A stretch of 64,000 bases of DNA from positions 690,552-754,551 of the forward strand of contig CAVQYU010000005.1 of assembly GCA_963718285.1 (NCBI GenBank), written 5' to 3'. Position 1 is the stretch's first letter; every line of letters starts with the position of its first letter. Shown here piece by piece: positions 13,013-46,157 of the stretch. The position numbers were made by a program, and so were the translations under genes. Below the pieces are notes generated by a model that was given only the letters and a program-made list of their open reading frames with translations, had not been told where the DNA came from and did no database searches. The stretch is from an uncultured Chloroflexia bacterium. Lineage in GTDB: Bacteria; Chloroflexota; Limnocylindria; Limnocylindrales; CSP1-4.

Positions 13013-13201
13013 GTTCGTGACAAATTCGCGCTACAGCGGGTCTTATGGCGGTTCGGCCTGCTCGCCGACCGTCGCACAGGCCCTTTTCTGGTCGGGCTGA
13101 GCACGAATTGACCGCCCAGGCGGCCCGATTCGGGCGTCGAACCTCGGGCATCGCCGTGTGGGCGACCATAAGGATCGTTCCGGCGCGAATTTGTCACGAA
13201 C
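13013..13201. repeat. 189-bp inverted-repeat-bounded intergenic element, copy E1 (MITE-like)
   Basis: Perfect 19-bp TIR GTTCGTGACAAATTCGCGC at 13013-13031 and 13183-13201, extended by CTTATGG/CCATAAG; internal CTGAGCACGA. Confidence 0.9.
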
Positions 13202-13294
13202 GCGGCGTTCCCGGGTGGGCTACCGGCGCTCTACATCGAGCGGGCGCAATCCATGGCACGATTCGGCGGCCCGCATCGTCATTGGAGCCGCCCC

Positions 13295-14501
13295 GTGAAT
13301 TGCTTCGAGCCCAACCTCCGGATCCCCGGGCCAACGGCCCTGCCACCCGCCGTGCGCGAGGCCGGCGGACGCCAGATGATCAACCATCGCGGGCCGGAGT
13401 TCGCGGCCATGCTCGGCCGGATCCTGGCCCGGATGAAGCCGTTCTTCGGGACGACCAGCGACGTCGCGATCCTGTCCTGTGCCGGTTCGGGCGGGCTCGA
13501 GGCGGCGGTCGTCAATACCCTGTCGCCGGGCGATCGCGTCCTGGGCGTGTCGATCGGCTCGTTCGGCGATCGGATCGCCAAGATCGCCAGCGTCTACGGG
13601 GCCGACGTGACCAAGCTGTCGATCGAGTGGGGCAAGGCAGCCGAGCCGGCCGAGCTGCGCGCCGAGCTCGAGGTCCAACCCGGCTACCGGGCGGTCCTGC
13701 TGACCCACAACGAGACGTCGACCGGCGTGATGAACCCGATCGCCCAGCTGGCGGCCGTCATGCGCGAGGTCCAGCCCGAAGCGCTGATCATCGTCGACAG
13801 CGTGTCTGGCCTGGGCGCGGTGCCCTTCGAGATGGATGCCTGGGGCGTCGACGTGGTCGTGACCGGTTCTCAGAAAGCCTGGATGGCGGCACCTGGGCTG
13901 GCCATGGTCGCGGCCTCGGAGCGGGCCTGGGCGGCGATGGAGACGGCCACGATGCCGCGCTTCTACCTCGACCTGCGCAAGCATCGCGAGTCGCATGCCC
14001 TGGGCCAGACACCCTGGACCCCGGCGATTGCGGTGGTCTACCAGGTCGATGCCGGGCTCGAGCTGATGGCGGCCGAGGGTGCCGAGGCGATCTTCGCCCG
14101 GCACGAGACCTGCGCCGCCGCCACGCGGGCCGGGCTGGCCGCGCTCGGCTTTCGAGCTGTTCGCCGATCCGGCTCACTATTCGCGGACGGTCACGGCCGC
14201 CCGGGTGCCGGAGGGCTTCGACTGGAAGGCGATCAACGCCGCGGTCAAGGCCGAGGGCGTCGTCCTGGCGGGCGGCCAGGGACCGCTGACCGGCCAGATC
14301 TTCCGCCTCGGCCACCTCGGCTCGGTCACCCTGGGCGAGATCCTCGATGCGATCGGGGTGCTCGAGGAGGTCTCGATCCGCTTCGAGCGAGCTGTCCTGC
14401 CGGGGGCGGGCATTGCCGCCGCCCAGGCGGCGGCGCTGGAGCGGATGGGGATCGGGCCGGCGGCCAGCTCGCGCGCCGTGCCAGCCGGCGCGGCGGGGTG
14501 A
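13295..14501 (+). CDS. Class V PLP aminotransferase (alanine-glyoxylate/serine-pyruvate type; probable phosphoserine aminotransferase), frameshift at about 14155
   Basis: RIPGPT, THNETSTGV, IVDSVS, GSQKAW (PLP lysine), FRLGHLG; directly upstream of serA. Confidence 0.88.
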
Positions 14502-16101
14502 GGATCCTGGTCGCCGAGAAGGTCGCCCCCGAGGGCCTCGGCGCTGCTCCGGGAGCGGCACGAGGTCGGAAGAGCGGATCGGGCTCGGGCCCGACGAATA
14601 CCGGGGATCCTGTTGCCCGACTATGACGGCCTGATCGTGCGCAGCCAGGTCCAGGTGGATGCCGGCCTGATCGAGGCGGGGCGGCGCCTGGTGGTGATCG
14701 GCCGGGCCGGCGTGGGCGTCGACAACGTCGACCTTGAGGCAGCCACCCGGGCCGGCATCACCGTCGTCAACGCGCCCGACCGGCAATACGATCGCTGCGG
14801 CCGAGCACACCCTGGCGCTCCTGTACGTGCTGGCCCGGCGGGTCGCCGCGGCCGACGCATCGGTCCGGCGGGGCGAATGGAAGCGGAGCGAGTTCAGTCG
14901 GGGTCGAGCTGCGTGGGCGCACGCTCGGGATCATCGGCCTGGGCAAGATCGGCCAGGCGATCGCGCAGCGAGCGCAGGGCCATGGAGATGACGGTGATCG
15001 CGGTCGATCCGTTCGTGTCGGCCGAGGCAGCCGCGCTGCAGGGAGTCGACCTGGTCGACCTCGACGCCCTCCTCAGCCGCTCCGATGCGATCACCGTCCA
15101 CGTGCCGCTGACCCGCCAGACGCGGGGCCTGATCGGCGCCGCCCAGATCGCCCGGATGAAGCCTGGCTCGTTCGTGCTGAACGTCGCCCGAGGCGGAATC
15201 CTCGATGAGGCTGGCCGTCGCCGAGGCGCTCCGCTCCGGGCATCTCGGCGGCGCCGGGATCGACGTGTTCGAAGCGGAGCCGCCAGTCGGCTCGCCCCTC
15301 CTGGACGCGCCGCGGACCGTGCTCACCCCGCATCTCGGCGCATCGACCGAGGAAGCCCAGGTCCTGGTCGCGGAGGAGGTCGCCGCCCAGGTCCTCGACG
15401 TCCTCGAAGGCCGCTCGGCGCGTTACGCGGTCAACGCCCCGCTGCTGACCCCGGAAACGGCCCTGGCCGTGGGCCCGTTCCTGCCCCTGGCCGAGATCCT
15501 GGGCCGGTTCGTCAGCCAGTTCAGCCGGACCGGGATCCGCCGGCTCAGCCTGGAGATCGGCGGCGAGCTGGCCCGCGACCTGGCCGGCCAGGATGGCGCA
15601 CCGCTGACCGCGGCGGTCCTGCGCGGATTGCTCGAGGGATCGACGACCGAGCGGGTCAACCTGGTCAACGCGTTCGCCCTGGCCAAGGCCCGGGGCATTG
15701 CCATCGTCGAACGCAAGACGCCCGATGCCGAGGCGTACAGCTCGCTGCTCAGCCTGACCGCCGAGGGCGACGGGGTAACCACGACGATTGCCGGGACGGT
15801 CGCCAACGGCGAGCCCCGGCTGACCCGCCTGGGCGAGCATCGCACTGATCTGACCCTCAGCCCGGTGATGCTGGTCACCCGCCACCACGACCAACCCGGG
15901 ACCATGGGCCGGATCGGGTCGATCCTGGGCCAGGCCGACGTGAACATCAGCGCGATGCATCTGGCCCGGTCCGAGCCGCGCGCCGATGCGCTGATGATCC
16001 TGGCCCTCGACGACGACGTCCCGGCGCCGGTCGCCGAGGCGATCCGGGCCGATGCCGCCGTCCTCGACCTGTGGCTGATCCACCTCGGCAGCGAACCTTG
16101 A
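14498..16101 (+). CDS. serA: D-3-phosphoglycerate dehydrogenase (multiple frameshifts)
   Basis: GRAGVGVDNVD, GNTIAAAEH, IIGLGKIG, NVARGG, LTPHLGAST; C-terminal ASB and ACT domains (DQPGTMGRIGSILG). Confidence 0.92.
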
Positions 16102-16918
16102 GCGGGCGCCTGGTCCCGGCCGGGCTGCACGCCACGATCGTCCTCCTCCGCCACGGTGAGTCGGTGGCGATCACGGAAGGCCGGTTCCAGGGTCGCCTGG
16201 ACACCCCGCTCAGCCCGCTCGGCGAGCGCCAGGCCGAGCTCGCCGGGGATCGCCTGGCCCATCCCGGCCGGCCGCCCCAGATCGCGGTCCCGACGACGGC
16301 CCCGGTCGAGATCGCCCACTCGCCACTCGCCCGGACCGCGGCCACGGCTGCTGCCGCCGAGGCCGCCCTGCGCGCGACCTACGGCTCGGCGACTCCCGCG
16401 CTGCGCCCCGAGCCCGGCCTGTACGAAATCGGCCAGGGAGCGTGGGACGGGCTCGAGCGGTCGGAAGTCGAGGCTCGCTTCGGGCCCGAGCTCGAGGCCT
16501 GGCGGCGAGCGCCCCACCTCAACAACGCACCGGGGGGCGAAAGCCTCGTCGAGGCCGACCGGCGCGTTCGAGTCGCGTTGCCGGCAATGCTCGACCGGCT
16601 CGCCCTGGCCAGCCCGCCGATCAACGCCGCGATCACCTCGGCTTCGGGTTACCCGCCGCCGATGTCCAGCCCGGCCTGGTCGCTCCTGGTCGGCCACGAC
16701 GGCGTGTTCAAGCTCGTCACTCTGGCCCTCCTCGACCTGCCCCTCGAGCGATTCTGGACCATCGCCTTTGGTCTGACCGGGATCACGATCCTGGCGATCC
16801 ACGACGGCCAGGTCGTGTGCGCGCCCACAACCTGCTCGATCACCTGGGCCCGCTCCAGGCCAGCCGCGGCAGCGGCCGATGCCGGCTCTCCGCGGGAGGG
16901 CAGCGGCCCGCGCTGTAA
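16098..16918 (+). CDS. Histidine phosphatase family protein (probable PspA-type phosphoserine phosphatase), frameshift at about 16815
   Basis: LLRHGES, SPLAR, EIGQGAWDG, GGES, VGHDG; TTGA overlap with serA. Confidence 0.8.
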
Positions 16919-16996
16919 GCTGCCGGCGCCCTCTCGGCCCGTCGGCCGCGGGCCGCCCGCGCCCTCCTGTCCGTCGACCTCGTCCGCCCGCCCGCA

Positions 16997-17184
16997 GTTC
17001 GTGACAAATTCGCGCCCAGCGATGCTAATGGCCGGTCGACGGTGCGACTCGAGGCTCGAATGGCTTGGCCGCCGCATTCGGCCTTCGCGTCGTGCTCAGG
17101 TAGCCTCGAGTCCGAGAACTCAGGGCAAGCCGACGATCCGGAGCGGCGAATATAAGACCGCTCTGGCGCGAATTTGTCACGAAC
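16997..17184. repeat. 188-bp inverted-repeat-bounded element, copy E2 (inverted relative to E1)
   Basis: Same 19-bp TIR at 16997-17015 and 17166-17184; internal TCGTGCTCAG is the reverse complement of the E1 motif. Confidence 0.9.
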
Positions 17185-18745
17185 GCCCGCCGTTGACCCC
17201 GGTGCCAGGGCCAGCCCGCTAGCTGCCGCTCGGCGTCGCGCTTCTTCTCGGTGTCGGCCAGCTTCTTCCGATTCGCCTCGCGGGTGCGCATGATCGAGGC
17301 GCCCGCCTTCATCGAGTCGACCGCCGGGCCCGGGCTGGGCGACCCGCTTCTGCCGGCCGGCCAGCCGGGCGGCCTGGCGCGCCTCGGCCCGGGCCGCCAT
17401 CCGGCGCCGATCGTGGCTTCGTAGCCCTGGTCGTCGGGCTGGTAGTAGTGGCGATCGGCCAGCTCCTCGGGCAGGTACAGCTGGTCGATGTCGGAGCCTT
17501 CGAATTCGGGCGGAAAACGATAGCCCACGCCGTGGCCGTAGTGCTTCATGGCGGGGTGGCCGGCGCTCCGAAGGTGGAGCGGGACGGGCAGGGCGCCGTG
17601 CTCGTCGAGGTCGGCCACCGCCGCGAAGTAGGCCGCCCCGGAGCGATTCGACTTGGGTGCGCTGGCGATGTAGGTCGTCGCCTGGGCCAGCGCGTACTGG
17701 GCCTCGGGCAGGCCGACGTGGTCGAGCGCCTGGGCCGCCGCGACGGCGACCTGGAGGGCCCGCGGATCGGCGTTGCCGACATCCTCGGAGGCGCTGATGA
17801 TCAGGCGCCGGACGATGAACCGGGGGTCCTCGCCGGCCGCGATCATCGTGGCCAGCCAGTACAGGGCGCCGTCCGGGTCATTGCCGCGCAGGCTCTTGAT
17901 GAACGCCGAGGCCGTGTCGTAGTGGCCGTCGCCAGCCCGGTCGTAGGCCAGGACCCGCTGCTGGGCGGCCGTCTCGACGTCGACCAGCCGCGGGCGTGAC
18001 CCGGCCGCTCGGGTCGCGCACGCCGGCGGAATCGGCCAGGGCCGTTGCCCCCTCGAGGACGTTGAGCGCCTGGCGGGCGTCGCCGCCGGCCAGCGCCGAC
18101 GAGGTGCTCGAAGGCATCGTCGGGCAGGGCCACCCCGCCGGCCGGACCGAGCGGCCCGGCCAGGCCGCGCTCGGGATCGTCGAGGGCCCGCTGGACGACG
18201 ATCCGGACGTCGTCGTCGGAGAGCGGCTCGAGGCGCCAGATCCGGAGCCGCGACAGCAGGGCGCTGTTCAGCTCGAAGTACGGGTTCTCGGTGGTCGCCC
18301 CGATCAGGATCACCGTGCCGTCCTCGACGTGGGGCAGCAGGCCGTCCTGCTGGGACTTGTTGAAGCGGTGGATCTCGTCGATGAACAGGACGGTCCGGGC
18401 GCCGTCGAGGCTGAGCCGCTCGCGGGCGGCGGCGACCGTCGAGCGGATGTCGGCGACGCCGCTCATCACCGCCGAGAGGCTCATGAACTCGGCGCCGACT
18501 GCCTCGGCCAGGAGCCGGGCCAGGCTGGTCTTGCCGGTCCCGGGCGGGCCCCACAGCAGGATCGAGCCGAGGTAGCCGCGCTCGACCGAACGTCGCAGCG
18601 GGCCCGTGCTCTCCAACCAGGTGCTCCTGGCCGACGTACTCGGCCAGGGTCGCGCGGTCGCATCCGGGCAGCCAGCGGCTGGACGCCGGGCGGCGGCTGG
18701 AAGAGGGCGGTCTGCTGGTCGGGAGCTGGGTCTGCGGGTCGGCAC
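17025..18745 (-). CDS. rarA: Replication-associated recombination protein A (frameshifted; true 3' end uncertain, possibly near 17200)
   Basis: [74 protein letters not shown]. Confidence 0.92.
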
Positions 18746-18773
18746 CCGGTCAGTCTACGACCGGCCGGGCTTG

Positions 18774-20654
18774 CTAGGCGACGCTGCTCTCGAGGCCCAT
18801 GCCCGGCGTCCAGATCCGGCGCAGCGGCCGGCCGTCGCCCGGCAGTGGCGCGTTCTCGGCCGTCTCGATGCCCTGGACGAAGGCGGTCACGAGGGTCGGA
18901 TCGAGCTGCGTCCCGGCGGCATCCTCGAGCCGGTGGAGCGCTTCCTGGATCGACATCGCCACGCGATACGGCCGGGTCGTGGTCATCGCGCTGAAGGCGT
19001 CGCCGACGGCCAGGATCCGGGCGATCAGGGGGATCTCCTCGCCCGACAGCCGGTCGAGGTAGCCGCTGCCCGTCCCAGCGCTCGTGGTGGTGGCGTACGC
19101 CGGCCCGGACGAGGCCCACGTTGGGCACGATCCGGACGATCGAGTCGCCCAGGGCGACGTGCTGCTTGACGATTGCGTACTCGTCCTCGGTCAGCGGACC
19201 CGGCTTGCGCAGGATCCCGTCGGGGATCCCGATCTTGCCCACGTCGTGGAGCAGGCCGGCGATCTCGATCGTCCGGCGCAGCTCGACGTCGAGGCCCATG
19301 CGGTCGGCCAGGAACAGTCCGTAGCGGGCGACATCCTCGGAGTGGCGCTTGGTGTAGCGATCCTTGGTATCGACGGCCAGGACCAGGCCGGCCAGGACGT
19401 CGAAGCTCGAGCGTTCGGCCGGGCCGAGGTCGCTGGGCGCGGCATCGGCGACCCGGACCCCGTTGCCGCCGCTGGCCTTGGCCTCGCCGAGGACGACCGC
19501 GGCCACCGCCAGCAGCTCGGTCGCGGCATCGCCGTCGGCGGGCGCGTAGCAGATTCCGGCACTGACCGTGACCGGCAGCCGCTCGGAGGCCCCGAACTGG
19601 AGGCTGAGCTCGGCGATCCGGTCGCGCAGCCGGTCGATCGCGCGTGACGAGGTCGGCGCTGTGGTCGGGCGGGGCCACGACCAGGAACTCATCGGGCCCG
19701 TAGCGGCCCAGGATCGACGTCTCGTCGAACTCGGCGCGCATGCAGCCGGGCGACCTCGAGGAGGGCCCGATCGCCGGCCTGGTGGCCGTGGGTATCGTTG
19801 ACCAGCCGGAAGTTGTCGATGTCGATCAGGGCGACCCCGATCGAGCCATCGGCTGGCCGCGGGTCTGCTCGAGCAGGTCGGCCAGCCGGGCGACCGCCGT
19901 GCCATGGTTGAGCAGGCCGGTCAGCGCGTCGCGCCGGCCGGCATCGACAAGGGCCCGGGTCTGGCGGGTCAGCCGGCGCTGGGTGGCCTGGAAGATGAAG
20001 TACAGCAGCAGGCCCAGGACGAGCGCCGCGGCCAGGACGACCACGAGGCGACCTCGCGGGTCGTGTTGGCGACCGTGTCCAGGATCGGCTGGGCGTTGCG
20101 GTAGATCTCGAACACGGCCGGGAACGGTGCCGTTCGGGACCGGGGATCGGGACGTACTCCTCGAGCAGCTGGCCGTCGGGCGGGAAGCCCGCGGTCGCCG
20201 CGTCGGGGTCGTCGGCGCCGACGATCGAGGGCGCCACCTGGCCCGTGTCGAAGGCGGCCTCGAGGTCGTCGTCCGGGCCGAGGTTCTTGCCGCGCAGGTC
20301 GGTCCGGTTGCTGTACAGGACGGTCTGGTCGGGGCGCGAAGATCTTGACGTGGACGATGCCGTCGGTCTGGATCAGCGAGGTCAGCCGCTGCCTCGATCT
20401 GGGCGACCCGGCCGTCCGGATACGCCGGTCGATCGTCAGGTCTGCGGCCTGCAGGTCGGACTGGAACAGGCCGATGGCCAGCGACTTGTCGGCCGCCGAC
20501 GGACGCGCTGAGATCGCGGCGTCCTGGACGTTTCCGGCTGACCACGCCGGCAAGGGCGACGCCGGTCGCAGCAACCAGGACGAGGCTTGCGCCAAGGACG
20601 CCCAGCAGGAGCCGTGAGCGGCGAATCGGACCGCTCGGACAGGATGCTCGACAA
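18774..20654 (-). CDS. Membrane-bound GGDEF + HD-GYP c-di-GMP signalling protein (many frameshifts)
   Basis: TM helices; RRDALTGLLNH, DIDNFRLVNDTHGHQAGD, RYGPDEF, KDRYTKRHS, LLHDVGKIG, HHERWDG-GYL. Confidence 0.85.
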
Positions 20655-20768
20655 GGAGGGCGCTCGCGCTACGGGATTCCCGAAGTCCCGACCGTAGGTG
20701 GCCCTGAATGGGCCTGTCGATAGGCCGTTCGGGGGATACAGGGGCCATCCGGCCCTGGCCGCGCCCGC

Positions 20769-21188: not shown

Positions 21189-21268
21189 CCGTTGGTTCCT
21201 CCGCGTCGGATTCGGCGGCGGTCCGCCGACGGCAGAGGATAGCACCCGGCCCTGCTAGACTCGGCGGC

Positions 21269-21811
21269 GTGCCCGATTCCGCGACGCTGACGCTCGCCCT
21301 GGTCGTCGCCCTGCTGCGTCTGCCTGGTCGCGCCTGGCGGTCCTCTGGCGGCGGGTCGCGGCCTCCGCGGCCGCCTCGACCGGATCACCCGGGGCGAGGA
21401 CGGCGCAGAGCCTCCAGGGCGTCCTCGAGACCCACCTCGGCCGGGTCGTCGACGGCCCAGGCGGATCTGGTCGATCTCGGCCGCCGCACCGAGCGCCTGG
21501 AGGTCGAAGGGCGCCGGGCCTTCCAGCGGATCGGCCTTGTCCGGTTCAACCCGTTCGAGGATACCGGCGGAAATCAGAGCTTCGCCCTGGCGCTGCTCGA
21601 TGCGGAGGAGGACGGGATCGTGCATCTCGAGCCTCCATTCCCGAGGCAATACCCGGATCTATGCCAAGGCGGTGGCCGCGGGCCGGCCCGAGGCGGCCCT
21701 GTCCGACGAGGAGACCGAGGCACTCGGCCTGGCCCGCGACGCGACGGGCGGTCGAGGTGGCGATCCGTGGCCGTGCTGCGCGCGCCGGCTGCTGCCCAGC
21801 CGAGCCGGTGA
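21269..21811 (+). CDS. DUF4446 family protein (frameshifted)
   Basis: IGLVRFNPFEDTGGNQSFALALLD...SSLHSRGNTRIYAK...LSDEE signature; leaderless TAGACT box. Confidence 0.85.
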   Translation: MPDSATLTLALVVALLRLPGRAWRSSGGGSRPPRPPRPDHPGRGRRRASRASSRPTSAGSSTAQADLVDLGRRTERLEVEGRRAFQRIGLVRFNPFEDTGGNQSFALALLDAEEDGIVHLEPPFPRQYPDLCQGGGRGPARGGPVRRGDRGTRPGPRRDGRSRWRSVAVLRAPAAAQPSR

Positions 21812-21943
21812 CGCCAGAGCTGTCACGACGGACGGCCATTCTGCGGGCATGCCCCCTTCAGTCCTGACCCAGCCAAACCCGATCAACCCGCCCGGCCACT
21901 CGGCAGGACGAGCCACCGGCGTCGGCTCCGGCCCCTGGAGCAG

Positions 21944-24900
21944 GTGCCGATGTGGGGCCACGCTCGGCACAGCCCGGCGACCGGTCCGGTCGCTCAGAGG
22001 TCCCGCCCGCGGCCGCGTCGGCAGGCTTCGACGCATCTGCTCGGCGGGCTCAATCCGGACCAGCGCCGGGCCGTGGTCCATGGCTCGCGGTCCGCTCCTG
22101 GTTGTCGCCGGGGCCGGGACCGGCAAGACCCAGGTGATCACCCGCCGGATCGCCTGGCTGATCGCCTCGCGGGCCGCCCGGCCCTCGGAGATCCTCGGCC
22201 CTGACGTTCACCGACAAGGCGGCCGCCGAGATGCAGGTCCGGGTCGACCAGCTCGTGCCCTACGGCTACGCGGACACCACGATCGCCACGTTCCATGCGT
22301 TCGGCGACCGGCTGATCCGCGAATTCGCGCTTCGAGCTGGGGCTGCCGCCCGACGTCCGGGTCCTGTCCCGGCCCGGAGGTCGTGATCTTCCTGCGCGAG
22401 CGCCTGTTCGAGTTCGAGCTGGACGCCTATCGGCCCCTCGGCGACCCGACCCGGTTCCTGGCCGCCCTGGCCGGCCATTTCAGCCGGTGCAAGGACGAGG
22501 ACATCAGCCCGGACGACATACCTCGCCTGCGCCGACCGGCTCGGTCGGCGAAGCGGAGCGCCTGGCGGCTGCGTCAGCCGTGCGGATCCGCGCCGGGCGG
22601 CCGGCCGGCTGGCGGCCGCCACGGCTGCGGCCGACGAGCGCCCGGCGCCAGCTCGAGCTCGCTCGGGCCTACGCCCGCTACCAGGCCCTCCTGGGCGAGG
22701 CCGGCCTGATCGACTTCGGTGACCAGGTCAGCCTGGCCCTGCGCCTCCTGCGCGAGTCGCCGGCCGCCCGGCTGGAGCTCCAGCGGCGCTTCCGGTTCAT
22801 CCTGGTGGACGAGTTCCAGGACACCAATCCGGCCCAGGCGGAGCTCGTGGCGCTGCTCGCCGAGGGCCACCGGAACGTGACCGTGGTGGGCGACGACGAC
22901 CAGTCGATCTACCGCTTCCGGGGAGCCGCGATCAGCAACATCCTCGAGTTCCGGCGAGCGCTACCAGCGGGCCCGCCTGGTCGTGCTCCGGCGCAACTAC
23001 CGGTCGCGCGCCGAGATCCTCGACGCCAGCCGCCGGCTGATCCGATTCAACGACCCGGATCGGCTCGAGGTCCGGGCCGGGATCTCCAAGCAGCTCCGGC
23101 GCCGAGCGACCCGAGCCGGCCGGCGCATGCCGCCGGCCGTCCGCCACGAGTCGTTCGTCACGGCCGCCGACGAGGCCGACTGGATCGCTGCGGACATCGC
23201 GGCCCGGATCTCGGCCGGTGCCCGACCCGCGCGACCACGCCGTGCTGGTCCGGGCCAATGCCGGCGCCGAGCCGATCCTGCGCAGCCTGAACATCGCCGG
23301 CGTGCCCTGGCGCTTCAGCGGAACGTCCGGCCTGTATGCCCGGCCCGAGGTCAGGCTGCTGCTCGGCGTTCCTGCGGGCGATCGCCGACCTGTCGTCCAG
23401 CATCGACGTGTACAGCCTGGCTGCCAGCGACGTCTACGGCCTCCACGGTCCCGGACCTGACCGCGATCATGACCAGCGCCCGGCGGCGGAGCCGGAGCCT
23501 GTGGGAGATCCTCGAGGAGCTCGACCGCCAGCCGGGCCTCCTCCGCCTGACGCCCGGGCTCACGGGCGACCCTTGGCCGGCTGGTCGCCGACCTGCGCAG
23601 CTACAGCGAGCTCGCCCACGAGCGCCCGGCCGGCGAGGTCCTGTATGCCTTCCTCAAGGGTTCGGGCCTGCTGGCGCGCTACGCCTCGGGCGGCACGCCC
23701 GGTGGCGAGGAGGCGCTCCAGAACGTCGCCCGCTTCTTCGAGATCGTGCGCGGCCAGTCGGTCCTCCTGGCCGACGACCGGGCCGTGTTCGTGGCGGCCC
23801 ACCTCCAGACCTTGATCGAGGCGGGCGACGATCCGGCCACGGTCGAGCTCGACGGCGACGCCGATGCCGTCGCGGTCCTCACCGTCCACAAGGCCAAGGG
23901 CCTCGAGTTCCCGACGGTCTACCTGGCCGGGCTGGTCGATGGGCGCTTTCCGGCCACCGGGCGGCGCGAAGGGCTGCAGATCCCGGATGAGCTGATCGGC
24001 ACCGTGGCCACCCGCCGGGGATCACCACCTCCAGGAGGAGCGTCGCCTGTTCTACGTGGCGATGACCCGGGCCCGCGACGAGCTGATCCTCAGCCACGCC
24101 GTCGGACTATGGCGGCCGGCGTGCCCGGCGGATGTCGCCGTTCGTGCTCGAGGCGCTCGACCTGCCGATCGCCTCGGACGGTCCCGCGCCTGGCCCCAGC
24201 CACGACCTCGCCGCTCGAGCGCCTGACCTCGTTCGAGGCGGTCCAGACGCCGGCCAACCCCCTGCGGCCGCCCACGGACGAGCCGCTGGCGCTCAGCTTC
24301 TACCAGGTCGACGACTACCTGACCTGCCCCCAGAAGTACAAGTACGTCCACATCCTGCGGGTGCCGATCGCCCCGCACCACTCGATCATCTATGGGGCGG
24401 CCCTCCACCGGGCCGTCCAGGAGTTCCACCGGCGCCACGCCCGCGGCGAGGTGATGTCCGAGGCCGACCTGCTGGCCTCGTTCGAGGCGGCGTGGATCAA
24501 CGAGGGATTCCTCAACCGCGAGCACGAGTCGGCCCGGCTGGAGGCCGGCCGGGCAGCGTTGCGCCGCTTCCGCCTGGAACAGCTCGAGCCCGATGCCGTC
24601 ATCCCGGCCTACGTCGAGCGAGACTTCGCGTTCACCCTCAACGGCGATCGGATCCGCGGCCGCTGGGATCGGGTCGACGTCGTGCCGGGCAACCCGGCGG
24701 AAGCCCCAGGCGCACGGGCAACCGGCGCTGAGGACGGCGGCGGCCGGCTCGAGGCGGGCTTCCAGCCCGACGTCGTCGAACCGACCCTGGCCCTGCTGCC
24801 GCCCGAGATCGTGACCATCACCGACTACAAGTCGAGCGACGTCCGCGATCCCGACAAGGCCCGCCAGCGCGCCCGCGATTCGCTCCAGCTCACGATCTAC

Positions 24901-25140
24901 GCGATGGGCTGGCAGGCGATGACCGGCCGCCTCCCGGATGCCGTCCAGCTCAGCTTCCTGGAATCCGGCCTCGTTGGCCGGGCCCAGGTCGACGAGCGCC
25001 GCCTGGCCAAGGGGCGGGCCCAGATCGAGGCGGCCGCCAGCGGCATCCGGGCGCGCGACTTCGAGCCCCGGCCGGATCCGCTGGCTTGCTCCTACTGCGC
25101 CTTCCGGGAGATCTGCCCGGCCAGCGTTGCCCGGCGCTGA
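21944..25140 (+). CDS. UvrD/PcrA SF1 helicase fused to a PD-(D/E)XK nuclease with an Fe-S staple (AdnB/AddA-like), many frameshifts
   Basis: LNPDQRRAV, AGAGTGKT, LVDEFQDTN, VGDDDQSIYRFRGA, NYRS, TVHKAKGLEF, EERRLFYVA; LTCPQKY, GRWDRVD, DYKS, QLTIY, CSYCAFREIC. Confidence 0.88.
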
Positions 25141-37849: not shown

Positions 37850-37882
37850 CCGCGCCTCCGGTCTTCGCCGGCCCAGGCCCGC

Positions 37883-39218: not shown

Positions 39219-39239
39219 CCGCCCCGCGCGACGGTCAGC

Positions 39240-39734
39240 TCAGGACGGGCCCTCAAGGGGCATCACCATGATCTGGATCGCCAGGTCGGTGTCGTCCCGG
39301 AGCGGGTACTGGTCGCCCGTCTCGACGAATCCAAGGCTTCGATAGAGCGCAATTGCGGCGCTGTTCGTGGTCGTGACGCCGAGGCCCAGGGCGGGATACC
39401 CGGCCGCGATCGCCCACTCTCTGACGGCGTCGACGAGCGCAACCCCGACGCCCTGCCGGCGTGCAATCGGGTCGACCCACATCGAGAACAGCCCTGCAAC
39501 ACCGGGTCGCGCGGGCGCCGGGCCCCCGCCCGCGAGTCCAACCAGCCCGTCCGGTCCGTCCGCCACGAACACTGCGCCGTCGGGTCGGTTCGCCCGTCGC
39601 TGCCAATCCTCGTCGGTCAGGCTCGATTCGTGGGCCAAAGTGGCCCCGAACGCGTCGGGCGAGTCACCGAGGGCTCGAAGCCGGATGACGCGATAGGCCT
39701 GCCACTCATCCGGCTTCAGTCGCCTGACTGCCAT
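39240..39734 (-). CDS. GNAT N-acetyltransferase
   Basis: SMWVDPIARRQGVG, N..AIALYRSLGF. Confidence 0.88.
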   Translation of the reverse strand: MAVRRLKPDEWQAYRVIRLRALGDSPDAFGATLAHESSLTDEDWQRRANRPDGAVFVADGPDGLVGLAGGGPAPARPGVAGLFSMWVDPIARRQGVGVALVDAVREWAIAAGYPALGLGVTTTNSAAIALYRSLGFVETGDQYPLRDDTDLAIQIMVMPLEGPS

Positions 39735-40201
39735 CAGATTTGCTTGAGCATTGTCACGTCGGTCTCGAGATAGCCACTCGAGCGATACAGGTTCCGGGCT
39801 GCCTCGTTCGAACCGAAGACGTGCAGCCGGATCGAGCTGTAGCCGAGCTCTCGGGCGAACGGCTCGAGCGCTGCCATCGTCGCCCGGCCGTGGCCCTGGC
39901 CCCGAAACTCGGCCTCGATCAGCAGGTCCCAGATGAACAGCGAGCCCAGCCCGATCTCAGTGTCCGCGCCGACCCAGACCGAGCCGACCGTCGCGCCATC
40001 GTCGCGCAGGATCCACAGGAAGGCATGCCCTGGCGTGGCCTGGCCGGCTGGGAGGAGGCTCTCGAACTCCTTGGCCGAGCGGCCTTCGGCGCCTTCCGGC
40101 GGCCAGCGGCCTAGCCCGACCATCTCCTCGACATGCGCGGCGTTCGCCCGCGCGGCCCAGGCCGGCCAGCTCTCCGCGGACATCGGACGGAGGGTCACCA
40201 T
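39734..40201 (-). CDS. GNAT N-acetyltransferase
   Basis: FRGQGHG, LHVFGSNEAARNLYRSSGY; leaderless TATCCT box. Confidence 0.88.
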   Translation of the reverse strand: MVTLRPMSAESWPAWAARANAAHVEEMVGLGRWPPEGAEGRSAKEFESLLPAGQATPGHAFLWILRDDGATVGSVWVGADTEIGLGSLFIWDLLIEAEFRGQGHGRATMAALEPFARELGYSSIRLHVFGSNEAARNLYRSSGYLETDVTMLKQI

Positions 40202-40217
40202 CGTCCGAGGATAGCCC

Positions 40218-41588
40218 TCAGCCGCGGCCGGACACGTTGACCCGCCGGTTGAGCCGGATTCGTCGCCGGCCGAGGTCTGCCTCGATGCCCCGTAGGGGAC
40301 GCCCAAGGAACCGCGAACGGCGGGCCAGCTGGTCGGCGGCGGCGCAGGCTCCCAACGCGCCAGCCGGGTCACGCTCTCGATGTTCGAGGCACTTGGCCAC
40401 CTCGATCCAGGCCAGCGCGGCATCCGGCCCCCCTGATCGGGCGACATCCCGCCATGCCTCGAGCGCCTCGCGGTGCCGTCCGAGGCGTCGAAGGAGCCGT
40501 GCCCGCTCGACGATGATGTCGAGCCGGGGCGGACATGGGCCGGTCTCGGCGGCGTCCGCCCGAGTGGTCAAGATCGTGGTCCAGGAGCGCCGGAGCGGAG
40601 CCGAGCGATCGGTCTGGCTCGCCTGGCCGGCGAGGGCCGCGACGATCGGACGGGGCGGACCCTCGAGCGCGGCATCGAGGCAGTCGAGGGCGTCGTTGTC
40701 ACGCCCAGTTCGGCGAAAGGCACGAGCCAGGCCGACCAGGTCCCCGGCCGGGGCGAGGCGCCGTTGCGAGATCGCGCCGAGTCGTTGCTCCATGTGGGCC
40801 AGCAGCCGGGCGAGCGAGCGGACGTCCTCGTGGTTGTGGCGAACGATCTCGGCGATCGGCTGCACCGGACCGCCGCGGAGCATCTCGAGGTAGCGCCCCG
40901 GGATCTCCCAGCCGTCGATGTCGTGTCCGCGGCGCATCCCCAGCAGCTCGGTCTCGACCGTCTTGAGGCGCGCGTCGCTCATCCGGTGGCGGAAGATCCG
41001 GCGGACAAACGGGAGCAGGTCCAGATGCCCGGCCAGCGGCGGTGGCGTGCGCCGGTTCATCCGGAAGCGGGCCACGAGCAGGGGCCAGTCGAAGCTTCGC
41101 CCGTTGTAGGTCACGAGCCATGCCTCGGGCGGCAGGAATCCGGCCAGGGCGTCGAGCAGGCCAGCCTCTCCAGCCTCGTCCGGGAGCAGGAGCTGGGCCT
41201 GCTGGAAGAGATCGCCCTCCCACCAGCCGAGGCCGACCAGGAAGGCCAGGGTGCCGGCCCCGGTCGCCAGGCCGGTCGTCTCGGTATCGAGGCAGACCAG
41301 CTTGACCTCCGGGCCTGGGTGGCCGGGCAGGCTTGCGCTCCGATCTCGGTCGATCGGCAAGGCCACCGGCGACGGTTCGATCAGGACGTGGCCACCGCCT
41401 GGGCCATTGACCCGGCGGCCGCCCAGGGCTTCGGCGAGGCGCTGGGCACGAGCGTCCGCGGACCGGGCGAGGCCCGACCAGGCCGGTTCGGCTGGCGGAC
41501 GCAGGCCCCCTGTGACCCGGTCTCGCTCGGCATCGCGGGCGATCCGGAATCGACCGAGCCGGCGTTCGAGGATCGCCGCGTCGCTCAT
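40218..41588 (-). CDS. mrfB: RNase H-like exonuclease with TPR-like C-terminus (YprB/MrfB)
   Basis: LDTETTGL, VTYNGRSFD, HLDLL, HNHEDV; adjacent to a DUF1998 helicase. Confidence 0.82.
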   Translation of the reverse strand: MSDAAILERRLGRFRIARDAERDRVTGGLRPPAEPAWSGLARSADARAQRLAEALGGRRVNGPGGGHVLIEPSPVALPIDRDRSASLPGHPGPEVKLVCLDTETTGLATGAGTLAFLVGLGWWEGDLFQQAQLLLPDEAGEAGLLDALAGFLPPEAWLVTYNGRSFDWPLLVARFRMNRRTPPPLAGHLDLLPFVRRIFRHRMSDARLKTVETELLGMRRGHDIDGWEIPGRYLEMLRGGPVQPIAEIVRHNHEDVRSLARLLAHMEQRLGAISQRRLAPAGDLVGLARAFRRTGRDNDALDCLDAALEGPPRPIVAALAGQASQTDRSAPLRRSWTTILTTRADAAETGPCPPRLDIIVERARLLRRLGRHREALEAWRDVARSGGPDAALAWIEVAKCLEHRERDPAGALGACAAADQLARRSRFLGRPLRGIEADLGRRRIRLNRRVNVSGRG

Positions 41589-41589
41589 C

Positions 41590-43908
41590 TCAGGCGGCGA
41601 CGACCGGTGTGGCGGCGGCCAGGGTTCGAAGGAGGCGCAAGGCCAGGGCCCGCGCGTCAATCCCGGGTTCGAGGCGGGGACCCGTGCAGCTCGGACAGCC
41701 GCCCTCGCAATCACATCCCGCGATCAGGTCGGCCGCCCCGGCGATCAGCTCATCGGTGCGCTCGAACAGGCGCTCCGCGAGGCCGACGCCGCCGGGCACG
41801 GTCTCGTACAGGTAGATCGTGGGTGCTTCGTGATGCGGCGAGCGGACCTGGCTGACGAGGCCAAGGTCGCGCGGGTCGACCATCAGCAGGAAGCTGGCCA
41901 CGGCCTGGAGGGCGCGGCCTGCCCCGACCAGCCCGATGTCGAGCTCGTTCCGGCGCCACGTTCCGCCTGGCCCGGTGGTGACCTGGGCGGGATCGAGGGT
42001 CAGCCAGGCTGCCGTGGTCTGCAGCTCGATCTCGGGCAGGTGGATCCGGCCCCAGCCCAGGTTCTCGTTGGTGATGAACTTGAGCTTCTTGTAGATGGTG
42101 GCGAGGCTGGCGACCATGACCTCGCCGTGCTCGCGCCGGCCGCCCGGCAGTCCGGCCGAGGCGAAGACGTCGAGCGGCTTGAGGGTGACGGCCGTGTCCG
42201 CCTGGGTGTAGTGGTCGACGTCGACCCGCCGGACATAGGCCTTGCGCTCGTCCCAGTCGAGCCGGTCGACGTGGAACTGGGCCGACTCGTGGAGGTAGAT
42301 CGCATCCTCGTGAACGGCCGTCTGCGCCCCGAACAGGTCGATCTCGCCGATGACCCGGGGCCGATCGGGGGTGGTGTCGATGATCACGACGTTCTCCGAG
42401 GCAGCCGTTCGAAGGGAGATCGACGACGCCGGGAAGTTCTCGCTCGACCAGTACCAGCGGCCATCGCCGGCCTGCCGGACGTGGTGCTCCTCGGCCAGGA
42501 AGGCGAGCAGGTCGTCAGCCGGGCCCGGGCCAAAGACCTCGCCCGGCTCGAACGGCAACTCGAACGTAGCCGCCTTCAGGTGGGCCAGCAGGATGTGCAG
42601 GTTGTCCGGATCGATCCGGGCCTCCTCGGGCGCTCCGGTAAGCAGGTACTCCGGGTGGTGGATGACGTACTGGTCGACCGGCGAGCCGCTGGCGATGACC
42701 ACGGCCACGCTCACCCCGCTCCGCCGGCCCGCCCGCCCGATCTGCTGCCAGGTACCGGCGACCGAGCCGGGATAGCCCGCGATCACGGCCGCATCGAGCC
42801 GTCCGATGTCGACCCCCAGCTCGAGGGCATTGGTGGCGACCACGCCGAGGACCTCCCCGCTGCGGAGGCCCTGCTCGATCGAGCGCCGCTCGGTCGGCAG
42901 GTACCCACCGCGATAGCCCCGGACCCGGGAGCGCGGCCCGGCATGCTCGCGGAGCGACTCGCGCAGGCCCGTCAGCAGGAGTTCGACCGAGGTCCGCGAG
43001 CGTCCGAACACGATCGTCTGGCGACCCGCCCGCAGGAACGGCAGAGCCCAGCGATTGGCCAGGGTCAGGGCCGAGCCGCGGGCGCCGGTGGCAGCGTCGA
43101 TCAGTGGGGGATCGACCAGCAACAGATGGCGCTCGCCGGCCGGCGCGCCGTTCCGGTCGACCAGCCGGGGTGTGCGCCCGGTCAGGGTCGTGGCCAGCTC
43201 GAGCGGATTGCCGATCGTGGCCGAGCAGGACACGATCAGCGGCTTCGAGCCGTAGTGGGCGCACAACCGGAGCAATCGGCGCAGGACGTTGGCGACGTGG
43301 CTGCCGAACACGCCCCGATAGGTATGGAGCTCATCGACCACGATGACCTGGAGCTGCTCGAACAGCTGAAACCACTTGGTGTGGTGGGGCAGGATCGCCG
43401 CGTGGAGCATGTCGGGGTTGGTCACGACCACCTGACCGGCCGTGCGGATGGCCGAGCGAATCGGCGCCGGCGTGTCGCCGTCGTAGGTGGCCGTCGAGAC
43501 GTCCAGCTCGGACAGGGCGGCCAGCGTGCTGAACTCGGCGACCTGGTCCTGGCCCAGGGCCTTGGTCGGGAACAGGAACAGGGCCCGCGCGGAGCGATCG
43601 TCGGCCAGGGCCTGGAGAACGGGCAGGGTGTAGCACAGGGACTTGCCTGAGGCCGTGGGCGTGACGATCGCCACGTCGTGGCCGGCATGGATCGCTTCGA
43701 TCGCCTCGGCCTGGTGGGTGTACAGGCTGGTGATCCCGCGCTGCTCGAGGCCGTGCTTGATCCGGGGGTCAAGCCAGTCCGGCAGTGGCGCGATCCGGGC
43801 GGCCCGGGCGGGGATCCGTTCGTGATGGACGACCCCCCGAGCCATCGACGGCTCGGCGAGCAGGTCATCCAGGACCCGATCGACAGTGGCAGGAGCGTAG
43901 GTCCGCAT
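41590..43908 (-). CDS. mrfA: DEAD/DEAH-box helicase with DUF1998 zinc domain (YprA/MrfA)
   Basis: LYTHQ, TPTASGKS, PTKALGQDQ, DELH, SATIGNP, ATNALELGVDIG, GRAGRR, CDCEGGCPSC. Confidence 0.9.
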   Translation of the reverse strand: MRTYAPATVDRVLDDLLAEPSMARGVVHHERIPARAARIAPLPDWLDPRIKHGLEQRGITSLYTHQAEAIEAIHAGHDVAIVTPTASGKSLCYTLPVLQALADDRSARALFLFPTKALGQDQVAEFSTLAALSELDVSTATYDGDTPAPIRSAIRTAGQVVVTNPDMLHAAILPHHTKWFQLFEQLQVIVVDELHTYRGVFGSHVANVLRRLLRLCAHYGSKPLIVSCSATIGNPLELATTLTGRTPRLVDRNGAPAGERHLLLVDPPLIDAATGARGSALTLANRWALPFLRAGRQTIVFGRSRTSVELLLTGLRESLREHAGPRSRVRGYRGGYLPTERRSIEQGLRSGEVLGVVATNALELGVDIGRLDAAVIAGYPGSVAGTWQQIGRAGRRSGVSVAVVIASGSPVDQYVIHHPEYLLTGAPEEARIDPDNLHILLAHLKAATFELPFEPGEVFGPGPADDLLAFLAEEHHVRQAGDGRWYWSSENFPASSISLRTAASENVVIIDTTPDRPRVIGEIDLFGAQTAVHEDAIYLHESAQFHVDRLDWDERKAYVRRVDVDHYTQADTAVTLKPLDVFASAGLPGGRREHGEVMVASLATIYKKLKFITNENLGWGRIHLPEIELQTTAAWLTLDPAQVTTGPGGTWRRNELDIGLVGAGRALQAVASFLLMVDPRDLGLVSQVRSPHHEAPTIYLYETVPGGVGLAERLFERTDELIAGAADLIAGCDCEGGCPSCTGPRLEPGIDARALALRLLRTLAAATPVVAA

Positions 43909-43923
43909 CGGGGTCCTCCATAT

Positions 43924-43937
43924 CGAACGGATGTGCG
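43924..43937. promoter_or_regulatory. Putative LexA (SOS) box upstream of mrfA
   Basis: CGAAC-GGAT-GTGCG, one mismatch to CGAAC-N4-GTTCG; lies between the minus-strand TGCTAGACT -10 (43948-43956) and the start codon. Confidence 0.55.
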
Positions 43938-44061
43938 AAACAGATGGAGTCTAGCAGCACGATGCGGCGCGGTTGCGACACCTTTGGTGTCACGCCACGA
44001 GCGGGGCCCGAGAGACGGCTGCGTTTGACACGTCGAGCTGCGCGTCAGCTACGCTGCGCCG

Positions 44062-44571
44062 ATGACCGGCCGGCCTGACGAACCGCGCGACTTGCCCGAC
44101 GACCCTCGGGACCCGGCTCCCACGAACCAGGATCCGGGCGACGGCCTGCTCGCCCGCGGTCGTGACCTGGCCGGCCTGTCGGTGGCCGGGATCACCCGCC
44201 GCCGGATCGCCATCCTCATGGCGGCCCTCCTGTGCGCCTGGATCGTGCTGGCCCTGTCACGCCAGGTCGGCGAAGCGGCCGACGCCACGAATCGGGCCCG
44301 CCAGCTGGGCGCGGCCAACCAGCAGCTGAACGCTCAGATCCAGACCCTGACCGAAGAGCGGACGCTGATCCAGCAGCAGACCTACATCGAGATCGAGGCC
44401 CGGGCCCACGGCCTCGGTGGCCGCAACGAGCGTCCCTTCAGCCTGGCCGCGGACGCTCCGTCCCTGCCGCCCGACGCGCCGGGCAGCGCCTCGGCGGCGC
44501 TCGGTGCCAGCCCCACGCTGACCGGCCCACTCGACGCCTGGCTCGACCTGCTCTTCGGTCCCGGCCACTAG
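44062..44571 (+). CDS. Septum formation initiator (FtsB/DivIC-like) protein
   Basis: TM helix followed by a coiled coil and YIEIEARAHGL...E; TTGACA (44025) and TACGCT (44050) promoter elements. Confidence 0.65.
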   Translation: MTGRPDEPRDLPDDPRDPAPTNQDPGDGLLARGRDLAGLSVAGITRRRIAILMAALLCAWIVLALSRQVGEAADATNRARQLGAANQQLNAQIQTLTEERTLIQQQTYIEIEARAHGLGGRNERPFSLAADAPSLPPDAPGSASAALGASPTLTGPLDAWLDLLFGPGH

Positions 44572-44644
44572 CCCGTCTCGCTAGCTCGCGCCCGGTCGCG
44601 CTAGCCCCCCGACGGCGGAGCCGCTCGGATGGCACGATCAGCCG

Positions 44645-45790
44645 ATGCACCGGCCCGTCCTGACCGCTGCCCAGCTCTCACGGGCAACCCTGGCTCGGCA
44701 GCTCCTGCTCGAGCGTGCCCGGCTCGACCCCACCCTGGCCATCGAGCGTCTCGTCGCCCTCCAGGCCCAGGAGCCGGCATCGCCCCACATCGCGCTGTGG
44801 TCGAGGCTCGCCGACTATCGGGCGGCTGACCTGAACGAAGCGTTCGATGCTCGCCGGGTCGTCAAGGGCACCCTCCTGCGAGTCACCCTCCACGCGGTCA
44901 GCGCCCGCGACTACCTGCGCTACTGGCCGGCCGTCGAGCCGAGCATCCGGCAATGGCGCTCGAGGATCATCCGGCAGCTGGCCCTCGAGCCAGACCTCGA
45001 GCGGCTGGCTGCCCAGGCGGCGGCCTTTGGAAGCGAGCCGAGGACGGGCAAGGAAATGAGCGAGCACCTGCCGAGGCTCGCGACGGGCGTCGGACCGGCC
45101 GGCCAGACGGACGCGTGGTGGGCCATCCGGCCGTTGCTGCCGTTCCTGATGGCGCCCGGCGAACCGCCCTGGTCGTTCGGGCGCCGGCCCCGGTTCGTCG
45201 CTGCCCCGGCCTGGCTCGAGGCCAACCTGGCTCCCTCGAGCGAGGGCCTCGATCACCTCATCCGACGCTACCTCACCGGGTTCGGGCCGGCCGGGGTGGA
45301 CGACCTGCACCAATTCACCCACGTCCCCACGTCGGTCCTGAGACTGGCCCTGGCGGGCCTCGAGGAGGAGCTCGTGGCCTTCGAGGACGAGCTCGGCCGA
45401 CGGTTGTTCGACGTACCCGGCGGTCTCCTGCCGCCGGGCGATCTGCCCGCCCCGGTCCGGTTCCTGCCGATGTGGGACAGCCTCTTGCTGGCCTATCGCA
45501 ATCGGAGCCGGGTCCTGCCGGAGCCCTACCGACGACGAGTGATCCAGCCCAACGGCGACTTCCTGCCCTCGTTCATGGTCGACGGCCTCGTCGCCGGGCT
45601 GTGGCGGGCCGACGTCGTGGCCGGCCGCACCCGGATCAGCCCGCTCCCATTCGCGCCCCTGGCGCCGGACGTCGCCGCGGAGGTCGCCGAGGAGGCCGAC
45701 CGGCTGGCCGCATTCCTCGAGCCGCTGGATCCGGCGGTCTACTCGCGCTACGCGATCACCTGGATGAAAGGGACGGAGCCAGCCGGCTGA
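44645..45790 (+). CDS. AlkZ/YcaQ-like (HTH_42) winged-helix DNA glycosylase
   Basis: RATLARQLLLER, LQAQE (QxQ), LWSRL, RVTLH, YLTGFGPA, RFLPMWD, VDGLVAGLW. Confidence 0.85.
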   Translation: MHRPVLTAAQLSRATLARQLLLERARLDPTLAIERLVALQAQEPASPHIALWSRLADYRAADLNEAFDARRVVKGTLLRVTLHAVSARDYLRYWPAVEPSIRQWRSRIIRQLALEPDLERLAAQAAAFGSEPRTGKEMSEHLPRLATGVGPAGQTDAWWAIRPLLPFLMAPGEPPWSFGRRPRFVAAPAWLEANLAPSSEGLDHLIRRYLTGFGPAGVDDLHQFTHVPTSVLRLALAGLEEELVAFEDELGRRLFDVPGGLLPPGDLPAPVRFLPMWDSLLLAYRNRSRVLPEPYRRRVIQPNGDFLPSFMVDGLVAGLWRADVVAGRTRISPLPFAPLAPDVAAEVAEEADRLAAFLEPLDPAVYSRYAITWMKGTEPAG

Positions 45791-45845
45791 CGGGTTGGCG
45801 CTCCGACCGAGGGTTGGGTACCATTCGCGACCGGGGCTGACCCGC

Positions 45846-45920
45846 GGCGGAGTAGCTCAGTGGTAGAGCAGGGGACTCATAAGCCCTGTGTCGCAAGTCC
45901 GATTCTTGCCTCCGCTACCA
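45846..45920 (+). tRNA. tRNA-Met (CAT), probably elongator
   Basis: Acceptor stem GGCGGAG/CTCCGCT, D-arm GCTC/GAGC, anticodon loop CTCATAA, T-stem GCAAG/CTTGC, encoded CCA. Confidence 0.93.
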
Positions 45921-45986
45921 AATCTTCCAATCCCACCCAGCAGGCCGCGTCCGGCGCCGGCCGCCTGCCGCGGCTGTTCGTCGAAA

Positions 45987-46157
45987 TTGCCAAATCCTTC
46001 CCAGTTGACGGCTTAGGCAACCGACGGGGCGCTTTGACCGGCCCGCGACATCCGGCATGTCCAATTCCACGCTCAGCCGACGCGCCTGGATCCTGCCCGA
46101 ACACGGAATCCTGGCCTGCCAAGTTGCGTAAGCCTCGTTTGGTGAACGATTTGGCAA
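45987..46157. repeat. 171-bp element with imperfect ~36-bp inverted termini (E3), related to E1/E2
   Basis: Left end TTGCCAAATCCTTC...GGCTTAGGCAAC versus reverse complement of right end TTGCCAAATCGTTC...GGCTTACGCAAC; central AATTCCACGCTCAGCCGAC. Confidence 0.75.

Follow-up and report, generated by a model that had tools for sequence, protein, structure and literature searches.

What are the short intergenic elements that recur with the same geometry, and with almost nothing in common between their interiors, along the chromosome of an uncultured soil bacterium? The question is raised by a window of 64,000 nucleotides (by which we mean the whole stretch of DNA analysed) within contig C5 of an uncultured Chloroflexia assembly of the order Limnocylindrales (GCA_963718285.1; 2.37 Mb, 71% G+C, 62% complete), where a first-pass annotation had picked out three such elements, E1, E2 and E3, and claimed that they belong together. 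They do form one family, and each of its members is built as a dyad: an end module of 43 bp stands, inverted, at either side of a short central site, the arms span 6-10 whole helical turns, and A/T patches lie on one face of the DNA. The best explanation that we can offer, to which we give a little short of an even chance, is that E1-E3 represent a genus-specific, non-coding and dispersed element, similar to miniature inverted-repeat transposable elements (MITEs) and bacterial interspersed mosaic elements (BIMEs), and that it may act as a helically phased platform with three sites for a looped or wrapped protein-DNA complex.

At each of the six ends of E1-E3 an outer A/T box is followed 24-25 nt further on by an inner box, the arrangement that had been noticed from the letters alone, and the perfect 19-bp terminal inverted repeat reported for E1 and E2 has exactly four occurrences in the window, one at each end of each element, where 0.01 would be expected. 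In a logo of 132 ends the conserved stretch begins 5 bp outside the outer box, stops 38 bp inside it and does not extend further; the end module is 43 bp long, is inverted at the two ends of an element and carries its two A/T boxes two helical turns apart. Between the ends stands a central motif of 11 bp, and the GCTCAG that had been pointed out at 79-80 bp from one end box is a part of it. The motif reaches at least 8/11 in 57 of 66 elements, compared with 8.6% of random 170-mers, and at least 9/11 in 41 of the 66, compared with 0.85% of random sequences. It is palindromic or occurs in both orientations in some copies, and in a second subtype, B, it points toward either kind of end. All three elements lie where they had been placed, but the limits of E3 are better set as in Table 1, since the conserved ends extend past the boxes; its centre was read by the geometry of the other elements, an ungapped motif scan giving only 7/11 there.

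Table 1. Positions in the window of the three elements, of their parts and of two genes beside E3.
Feature	Position	Strand	Basis or remark
E1, whole element	13013..13201	.	179 bp between the outer boxes, these included; a further 5 bp conserved at either side
E1, left end module (outer and inner A/T box with a 16-nt gap between them, and a conserved inner triplet)	13013..13055	+	Profile E 2.6e-11; logo of 132 ends
E1, central 11-bp motif	13098..13108	-	11/11 to family consensus; 80 bp from left outer box
E1, right end module, inverted copy	13159..13201	-	Profile match; 19-bp repeat
E2, whole element	16997..17184	.	178 bp box to box; orthologous copy in G010
E2, left end module	16997..17039	+	Profile match; 19-bp repeat
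E2, central motif	17088..17098	+	9/11; 81 bp from right outer box
E2, right end module	17142..17184	-	Profile match; 19-bp repeat
E3, whole element, second subtype	45983..46161	.	169 bp box to box
E3, left end module, subtype B	45983..46025	+	Two-box pattern
E3, degenerate central motif, 12 bp (one extra base)	46064..46075	+	76 bp from left and 81 bp from right outer box
E3, right end module, subtype B	46119..46161	-	Two-box pattern; profile E 2.2e-4
tRNA gene upstream of E3	45846-45917		E3 lies between this gene and the ftsH-like gene
ftsH-like gene at E3	46132-48324		E3 lies between the tRNA gene and this gene

The genome of the window (G000) holds 20 curated inward-facing pairs and 8 single ends of the family. 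Iterated profile searches with the ends gave 29 and then 40 end matches in it, and a pattern of the two boxes matches 39 times, against none for its reversed control. The link of E3 to the two other elements, which the first-pass annotation had treated as open to coincidence, stands as well: both its ends fit the pattern, the right one is also matched by the profile, and it belongs to the second subtype. Further copies were found in the relatives. The assemblies of the same genus, among them G003, G006, G007, G008, G010, G013 and G015, are 62-92% complete, and G010 (77% complete, 9 contigs) is together with G000 one of the two element-richest genomes. Of the 15 further genus genomes, 13 are positive for the two-box pattern, each with 1 to 53 matches, and the controls of this cross-genome scan gave 0 in every genome except one; the copy number in one relative is about 60. 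With a sequence-only profile model built from 42 ends, 12 of the 15 genomes were matched and the number of end matches per genome ranged from 0 to 120 (120 in G010, 37 in G008, 36 in G000, 18 in G007, 9 in G003 and 0-6 in the remainder), and two of the three genus genomes that the model did not match have pattern matches from divergent, species-specific subtypes. Outside the genus, the pattern was found in 0 of 9 genomes from other genera of the family and in 0 of 16 from a second family, that is in 0 of 25 in the order, and the 42-end model had no match in 150 other genomes of the class, from 35 other genera. As far as the genomes searched show, the family is found only in one genus.

The two subtypes have the A/T boxes and their spacing in common and differ in the sequence between, and hybrid elements connect them. 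Nearly all interiors of copies in one genome are unalignable, apart from a few pairs in G010 that are 79-88% alike and stand partly in tandem arrays; two dispersed copies of that genome have 88% of their interiors in common. Local clusters occur in G010 (L044, L048, L043, L037), with three elements in tandem inside 0.8 kb, and at one place four elements inside 7 kb alternate with single small genes (DUF2461, adenylate cyclase, glyoxalase, DUF427). At a locus of the genome of the window (L105, G000:C2:288000-290500, local positions 1026-1416) a subtype-B element stands beside an element of the one-base-shorter subtype, and the same locus in G010 (L053) has the subtype-B element only.

The lengths of the elements follow the helical repeat of DNA. 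Among 79 elements from G000 and five relatives they fall into classes of 145-148 (2 elements), 157-159 (6), 165-171 (37), 176-180 (24), 187-190 (8) and 199-200 bp (2), with none between. The periodicity is maximal at 10.5-10.6 bp (Rayleigh R = 0.807) and little lower over 10.2-10.9 bp, and 500 sets of random lengths gave no R above 0.366 at any period. In the 57 elements with a central motif of at least 8/11, the distance from the motif to the end that it points at is 78-82 bp in 38, 88-91 bp in 12, 69-70 bp in 5 and 101 bp in 1, the other arm being 56, 66-67, 75-79, 86-89 or 97 bp long; counted between the outer box's first base and the midpoint of the central dyad, an arm is 63, 73.5, 84, 94.5 or 105 bp long, which by arithmetic is 6-10 turns of 10.5 bp. 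The A/T fraction along the arms peaks at positions -3, 6.5, 16.5, 27.5, 36, 47, 57.5 and 68. In the unconserved spacer only (positions 40-72) its amplitude is 0.053, highest at 10.5 bp among the periods tried, against a maximum of 0.017 in the null, and 0 of 1000 shuffles reached the observed value. Copies at the same locus also differ in length by multiples of about 10.5 bp, about one to three turns (145/157/178, 158/169, 168/200). The assembly of the window has many split genes, so that single-base length errors are possible, and these would blur the length classes and not create them. Steps in length and A/T phasing at 10.5 bp point to a constraint on double-stranded DNA that is bent on one face, and spacing that is conserved in whole turns with spacers of free sequence would bring the three sites onto one face of the helix. 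This suggests that proteins fold each element into a tight loop. A search of the open-access part of the literature, subscription journals and old scans lying outside it, gave no such family and no helical length rule in MITEs, and a rule of whole-turn spacing in a bacterial repeat family seems not to have been described before.

A protein-coding function was considered and rejected: the length classes follow 10.5 bp and not 3 bp (R 0.12 at that period), and the start- and stop-like triplets in the inner boxes fall in no constant frame when this is worked out from the lengths. The same applies to a long hairpin, the complementarity of the arms being 4.65 within an element versus 5.25 between elements and the low folding energy coming from the ends alone, and to a small hairpin in the end module, which shows no covariation (60.1% paired versus 60.3% shuffled, and 76.8% versus 73.9%). 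Short dyads are slightly over-represented in the 16-nt gap, where the best perfect stem has a mean of 3.18 versus 2.61 in shuffled sequences and where stems of at least 4 bp occur in 56 of 160 ends versus 24 of 160. Rfam, the database that had been proposed for this comparison, matched only tRNA at its gathering thresholds and nothing on the elements at E up to 1. No sigma-70-like promoter was found in E1 or E2, and the single terminator-like site lies outside the elements. Of the options that the first-pass annotation had left side by side, a structured RNA finds no support, in view of arms that are not complementary, of the lack of covariation and of any Rfam match, and of a 10.5-bp rule that is a property of double-stranded DNA, but a multi-site protein-binding or recombination element and an old MITE both fit, with support from the 10.5-bp lengths, the phased A/T and the gain and loss between species.

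Comparison of single loci shows that the family has spread to new loci within the genus and that copies have been lost and truncated. In G010 an orthologue of E1 occupies the corresponding position (87% identity over 1.7 kb), and E1 is absent in G008 and G003. An element is present at the same locus in G010 for 13 of the 20 elements of G000, and at one further locus in G000, G008 and G010. At a second locus with presence and absence G000 has a full element, G008 keeps no more of it than the outer portion of one end, and the gaps of 39-81 bp in G010, G003, G006 and G015 have no element, for which a gain within the genus followed by a partial deletion is the simplest account. The search for empty orthologous sites that had been suggested together with the family thus gave absences at orthologous loci, but the junctions there have diverged too far for the insertion point to be placed exactly. 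Among 10 same-locus pairs, identity is 77-78% at the ends, 64% in the interior and 58-61% in the 40-bp flanking intergenic DNA, random identity being about 50%; the ends change more slowly than the intergenic DNA beside them. Of 20 ends compared with 84 ends of G010, 8 have the orthologous end as their best match and 11 have it among their best five. From these values, about half of the same-locus pairs have clearly been inherited in place with slowly changing ends, and the remaining ones look replaced, one pair holding different subtypes in the two species. The orientation of the interior is alike in all 5 informative same-locus pairs of G000 and G010, and contigs from soil metagenomes, which drop rare variants, gave no strand-switch joint and no clean empty site.

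A soil contig from a related strain keeps both end regions of E2, with 17066-17158 replaced by 90 other letters and 16861-16962 by 92 other letters, and its flanking genes are more than 90% alike; the intergenic DNA of the lineage is turning over fast. The four 19-bp ends of E1 and E2 are identical in G000, and the four orthologous termini in G010 differ mutually at 1-3 positions. This identity could be the outcome of homogenisation between ends, or all four simply fit the consensus. In G008 a solo end remnant lies 57 bp after the upstream gene and near the start of its contig (L114, G008:C138, local positions 183-209), and the elements may contribute to contig breaks in short-read assemblies.

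How would such an element work? In the explanation that we prefer, the elements would act as double-stranded DNA, protein subunits would bind the two bipartite ends and the centre, and the phased A/T patches would let the approximately 150-200 bp bend in one plane, so that the three sites meet in one complex. This geometry could be that of the synapse of a very short transposon or recombination system, or that of a site for an architectural protein. Selection would keep the ends, the centre and the spacing after insertion, from which it would follow that many copies probably now serve the host, or a chromosomal protein with the ability to recognise them.

Several points weigh against this explanation, starting with the fact that binding, looping and bending are read from sequence statistics only. 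The enzyme search, which covered the six families Y1_Tnp, rve, DDE_Tnp_1, Transposase_mut, DDE_3 and Resolvase, gave no significant match in G000 or G010; the families other than Y1_Tnp do match in G008 and, for some of them, in G007. Y1_Tnp (PF01797), which stands for RAYT, had no match in 16 of 16 genus genomes, and control genomes did match. That the window is free of transposases and recombinases, as first stated, held for the 49 reading frames scanned. G000 and G010 have only two Xer-like tyrosine-recombinase loci each, as have element-poor relatives, and such genes occur in all five genomes searched, the element-poor G013 included. An enzyme gene bounded by the family's own ends, which the first-pass annotation had proposed to look for, did not appear: the 18 transposase and recombinase loci fetched from G008, G007 and G000 are without element ends, and no copy with a gene between its ends was seen in the genomes searched, public metagenome and genome collections being outside the scan. 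An autonomous element may reside outside the searched genomes. Contig C6 terminates in a fragment that weakly resembles DDE_Tnp_1 (E 4.6e-4, short of the cut-off; L077, G000:C6:175646-175906); it hints at an insertion sequence of G000 that escaped assembly, and no element end lies beside it. Target duplications are not consistent: in 66 elements no fixed-offset repeat of 3-8 bp is clearly above the offset mean, and flexible-offset repeats of at least 7 bp number 6, versus 4.0 +/- 1.8 in permutations (p 0.23). One geometry picked after the fact has p 0.04. The 6-bp flanking duplications that had been described at E1 and E2 are there but are no feature of the family, their geometry being found in 2 of 66 elements; old target duplications may have decayed. 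Also unfavourable are the nearly unalignable interiors of copies in the same genome, which give no sign of recent bursts in G000, and the conservation of the ends in place, which is not expected of a decaying transposon and fits a host function equally well.

Other explanations share part of this evidence. It is conceivable, though we would rate it as doubtful, that the elements are self-contained DNA-folding devices, each a planar loop of 14-19 turns, specified by the sequence to the single turn, that closes on a complex at the ends and the centre and is kept by selection locus by locus, either as a positioning element for a chromatin-like or architectural protein or as a mini-transposon whose length is selected in whole turns, DNA this short being able to form a synapse only when in phase. 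Doubtful too is a role purely for the host, in which the family would be an architectural or topological site where gyrase, a bender of the HU/IHF type or another nucleoid protein wraps or loops the DNA at a set position; the ends would then be binding sites and not transposon termini, and new copies would arise rarely, by recombination. The dyad symmetry of the whole element and the phased A/T along both arms would suit it, as would ends and spacing conserved in place with no transposase found, and the position next to genes, with 3' gene ends on 59 sides and 5' ends on 31 of 132 by crude gene calls that left 42 uncalled. The elements further resemble the symmetric 130-bp gyrase motif of E. 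coli, BIME-2 being a strong gyrase site (PMC6379681). However, restriction to one genus with 0-120 end matches per genome is odd for an essential universal protein, the most conserved boxes lie at least 76-79 bp from the centre and so beyond a 130-bp footprint of the gyrase type, and the existence of subfamilies and tandem arrays, together with gains at new loci and remnants of solo ends, is what mobile repeats typically show. An arm length that varies from 6 to 10 whole turns also fits loops better than a fixed wrap.

We consider it unlikely that the elements are invertons, in which a recombinase acting on the inverted ends flips the interior and the centre serves as an enhancer or a promoter part in an invertasome-like complex. 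Inverted ends around an interior of about 100 bp with an asymmetric central motif are what such a switch would have, three sites on one helical face suit an invertasome, and the subtype-B motif does point to either kind of end; but the orientation is kept in 5 of 5 informative pairs without strand-switch joints in the contigs, the recombinases of G000 and G010 are the two Xer-like tyrosine enzymes each and not serine recombinases, and the elements occupy convergent, divergent and co-directional gaps alike, with no sigma-70-like promoter in E1 or E2. An element acting as a single strand, be it a REPIN-like hairpin pair moved by RAYT or another HUH enzyme or a structured non-coding RNA, would account for the paired inverted ends, for the weak dyad excess in the 16-nt gap and for the 5-bp palindromes there in some species-specific subtypes. 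We regard it as highly improbable, given that Y1_Tnp is missing from all 16 genus genomes with the controls matched, that neither covariation nor complementary arms nor an Rfam match was seen, and that neither length steps of 10.5 bp nor A/T phasing would make sense in single-stranded DNA or RNA. The notion of a regulon, with the elements as operator sites of a looping transcription factor, draws on the similarity of three phased sites to repressor loops with a central bender and on some copies that closely precede genes (the aminotransferase and serA-like genes in the case of E1, ftsH in that of E3). We give it very little credence: the adjacent genes have no function in common, many of the copies sit in convergent gaps, presence at the same locus varies by species, and tandem arrays occur.

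The surroundings of the elements are those of ordinary genes with unrelated functions. By crude gene calls, gene 3' ends adjoin them on 59 and 5' ends on 31 of 132 sides (42 uncalled), and the gaps are convergent in 9 cases, divergent in 5 and co-directional in 13, a distribution that is as expected of tolerated repeats and at odds with a single regulatory role. Within the window, E1 and E2 bracket a 3.8-kb block (13013-17184) with a class-V aminotransferase, a split D-3-phosphoglycerate dehydrogenase and a histidine-phosphatase gene, apparently a set for the serine pathway, and the central motifs of E1 and E2 point outwards from it. An MgsA/RarA-like frame (17025-18554, minus strand) extends about 160 nt into E2 before its stop, with the last Pfam domain ending at residue 384 of 509; E2 may have replaced the original 3' end of this gene. 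After E3 and upstream of the ftsH-like gene (46157-46235) a stretch of about 17 bp is present twice, about 43 bp apart, the second copy being adjoined by a piece that resembles the outer part of an E3 end. Genes split in overlapping frames (10592-12939, 14613-16101 and 21537-25140; pieces of TgpA/DUF4129, of a serA-like gene and of a UvrD/PD-(D/E)XK helicase-nuclease) are either assembly indels or real frameshifts, and the region from 10.6 to 23 kb has poor frame signals in a scan of G+C at third codon positions (GC3).

Where does the family belong among known repeats? It has terminal inverted repeats, it is small, non-coding and present in many dispersed copies, and it shows orthologous presence and absence, all of which are found in MITEs; a target duplication of fixed length and an autonomous partner or cognate transposase are missing, and four of six MITE features are present in all. 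Since it also fails the tests that define REPIN/RAYT systems, attC sites and invertons, we would file it outside the named families, as a variant of the dispersed-repeat kind. As to invertons, the single orientation in 5 of 5 orthologous pairs, beside which a mixture at the level of the population is conceivable, and the absence of a Resolvase match in G000 and G010 speak against membership. The attC sites of integrons are alike in their imperfect inverted ends and variable centre, and the region of G010 in which elements alternate with single small genes recalls them as well, but here the terminal triplets have the reverse polarity, the arms are complementary at the ends only and no further in, and no integron-type integrase was found. 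attC sites are also shorter than the elements described here.

Correia elements of Neisseria have terminal inverted repeats, a length of 100-200 bp, non-coding sequence, intergenic position, variable presence, subfamilies and a central IHF site. From bacterial MITEs the present family departs in having no consistent target duplication, no autonomous partner or transposase found, interiors that are almost unrelated and ends conserved in place; its lengths are moreover quantised by the helical repeat, for which the literature searched has no counterpart in any MITE family. The SARK-type repeats of Deinococcus radiodurans, of about 150-190 bp, have alternating conserved and variable segments with dyad symmetries at the conserved parts. 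They are alike in length range and in the alternation of segments, and helical quantisation is not known to have been reported for them. REPIN-RAYT systems (REP: repetitive extragenic palindromic) resemble the family in the inverted pairing of a short repeat around a linker, in vertical keeping and in lineage-specific sequence variants, and differ in that here the RAYT gene was not found, a conserved stem-loop is lacking, the hairpin shows no covariation and the spacer is not conserved.

Of the described architectures, BIME-1 is the closest, in which inverted REPs surround a conserved linker that often has an IHF site (PMC3333891). As in BIMEs, the elements are intergenic and dispersed, a genome can hold dozens of them, a conserved central site stands between two end units in inverse orientation, and the whole would serve as a platform for architectural proteins; unlike them, the ends are bipartite modules of 43 bp and not hairpins of 20-40 nt tagged by a conserved tetranucleotide, the spacers may have any sequence while their length keeps to whole helical turns, each element has about double the length, and none of the 16 genus genomes gave a RAYT match. 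In sequence signature, the closest one described is the symmetric 130-bp gyrase motif of E. coli, with periodic flanks of 47 bp and base composition phased at about 10.5 bp, which the source interprets as DNA resting on a protein surface with A/T facing the protein (PMC6379681). Both have a symmetric pattern of more than 100 bp around a centre with composition phased at about 10.5 bp, but the gyrase motif is degenerate, whereas the present family, in one genus, has sharp boxes up to 105 bp from the centre and an arm length that varies in whole turns.

If the elements are folding devices of the kind considered above, theirs would, to our knowledge, be the first natural bacterial repeat family with helical phasing rather than sequence as its defining conserved trait. 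If the partner of the elements is a transposase, DNA mechanics would have selected the length of a transposon; with a host protein as partner, the elements would mark some 30 to 60 architectural sites on each chromosome. The family can be seen as a natural experiment on the looping and wrapping of short DNA in the cell, and it points to a DNA-binding partner in a poorly known, uncultured soil lineage. Dispersed bacterial repeats such as REP/BIME and MITEs are usually defined by their sequence or by a hairpin, whereas this family is defined by its geometry.

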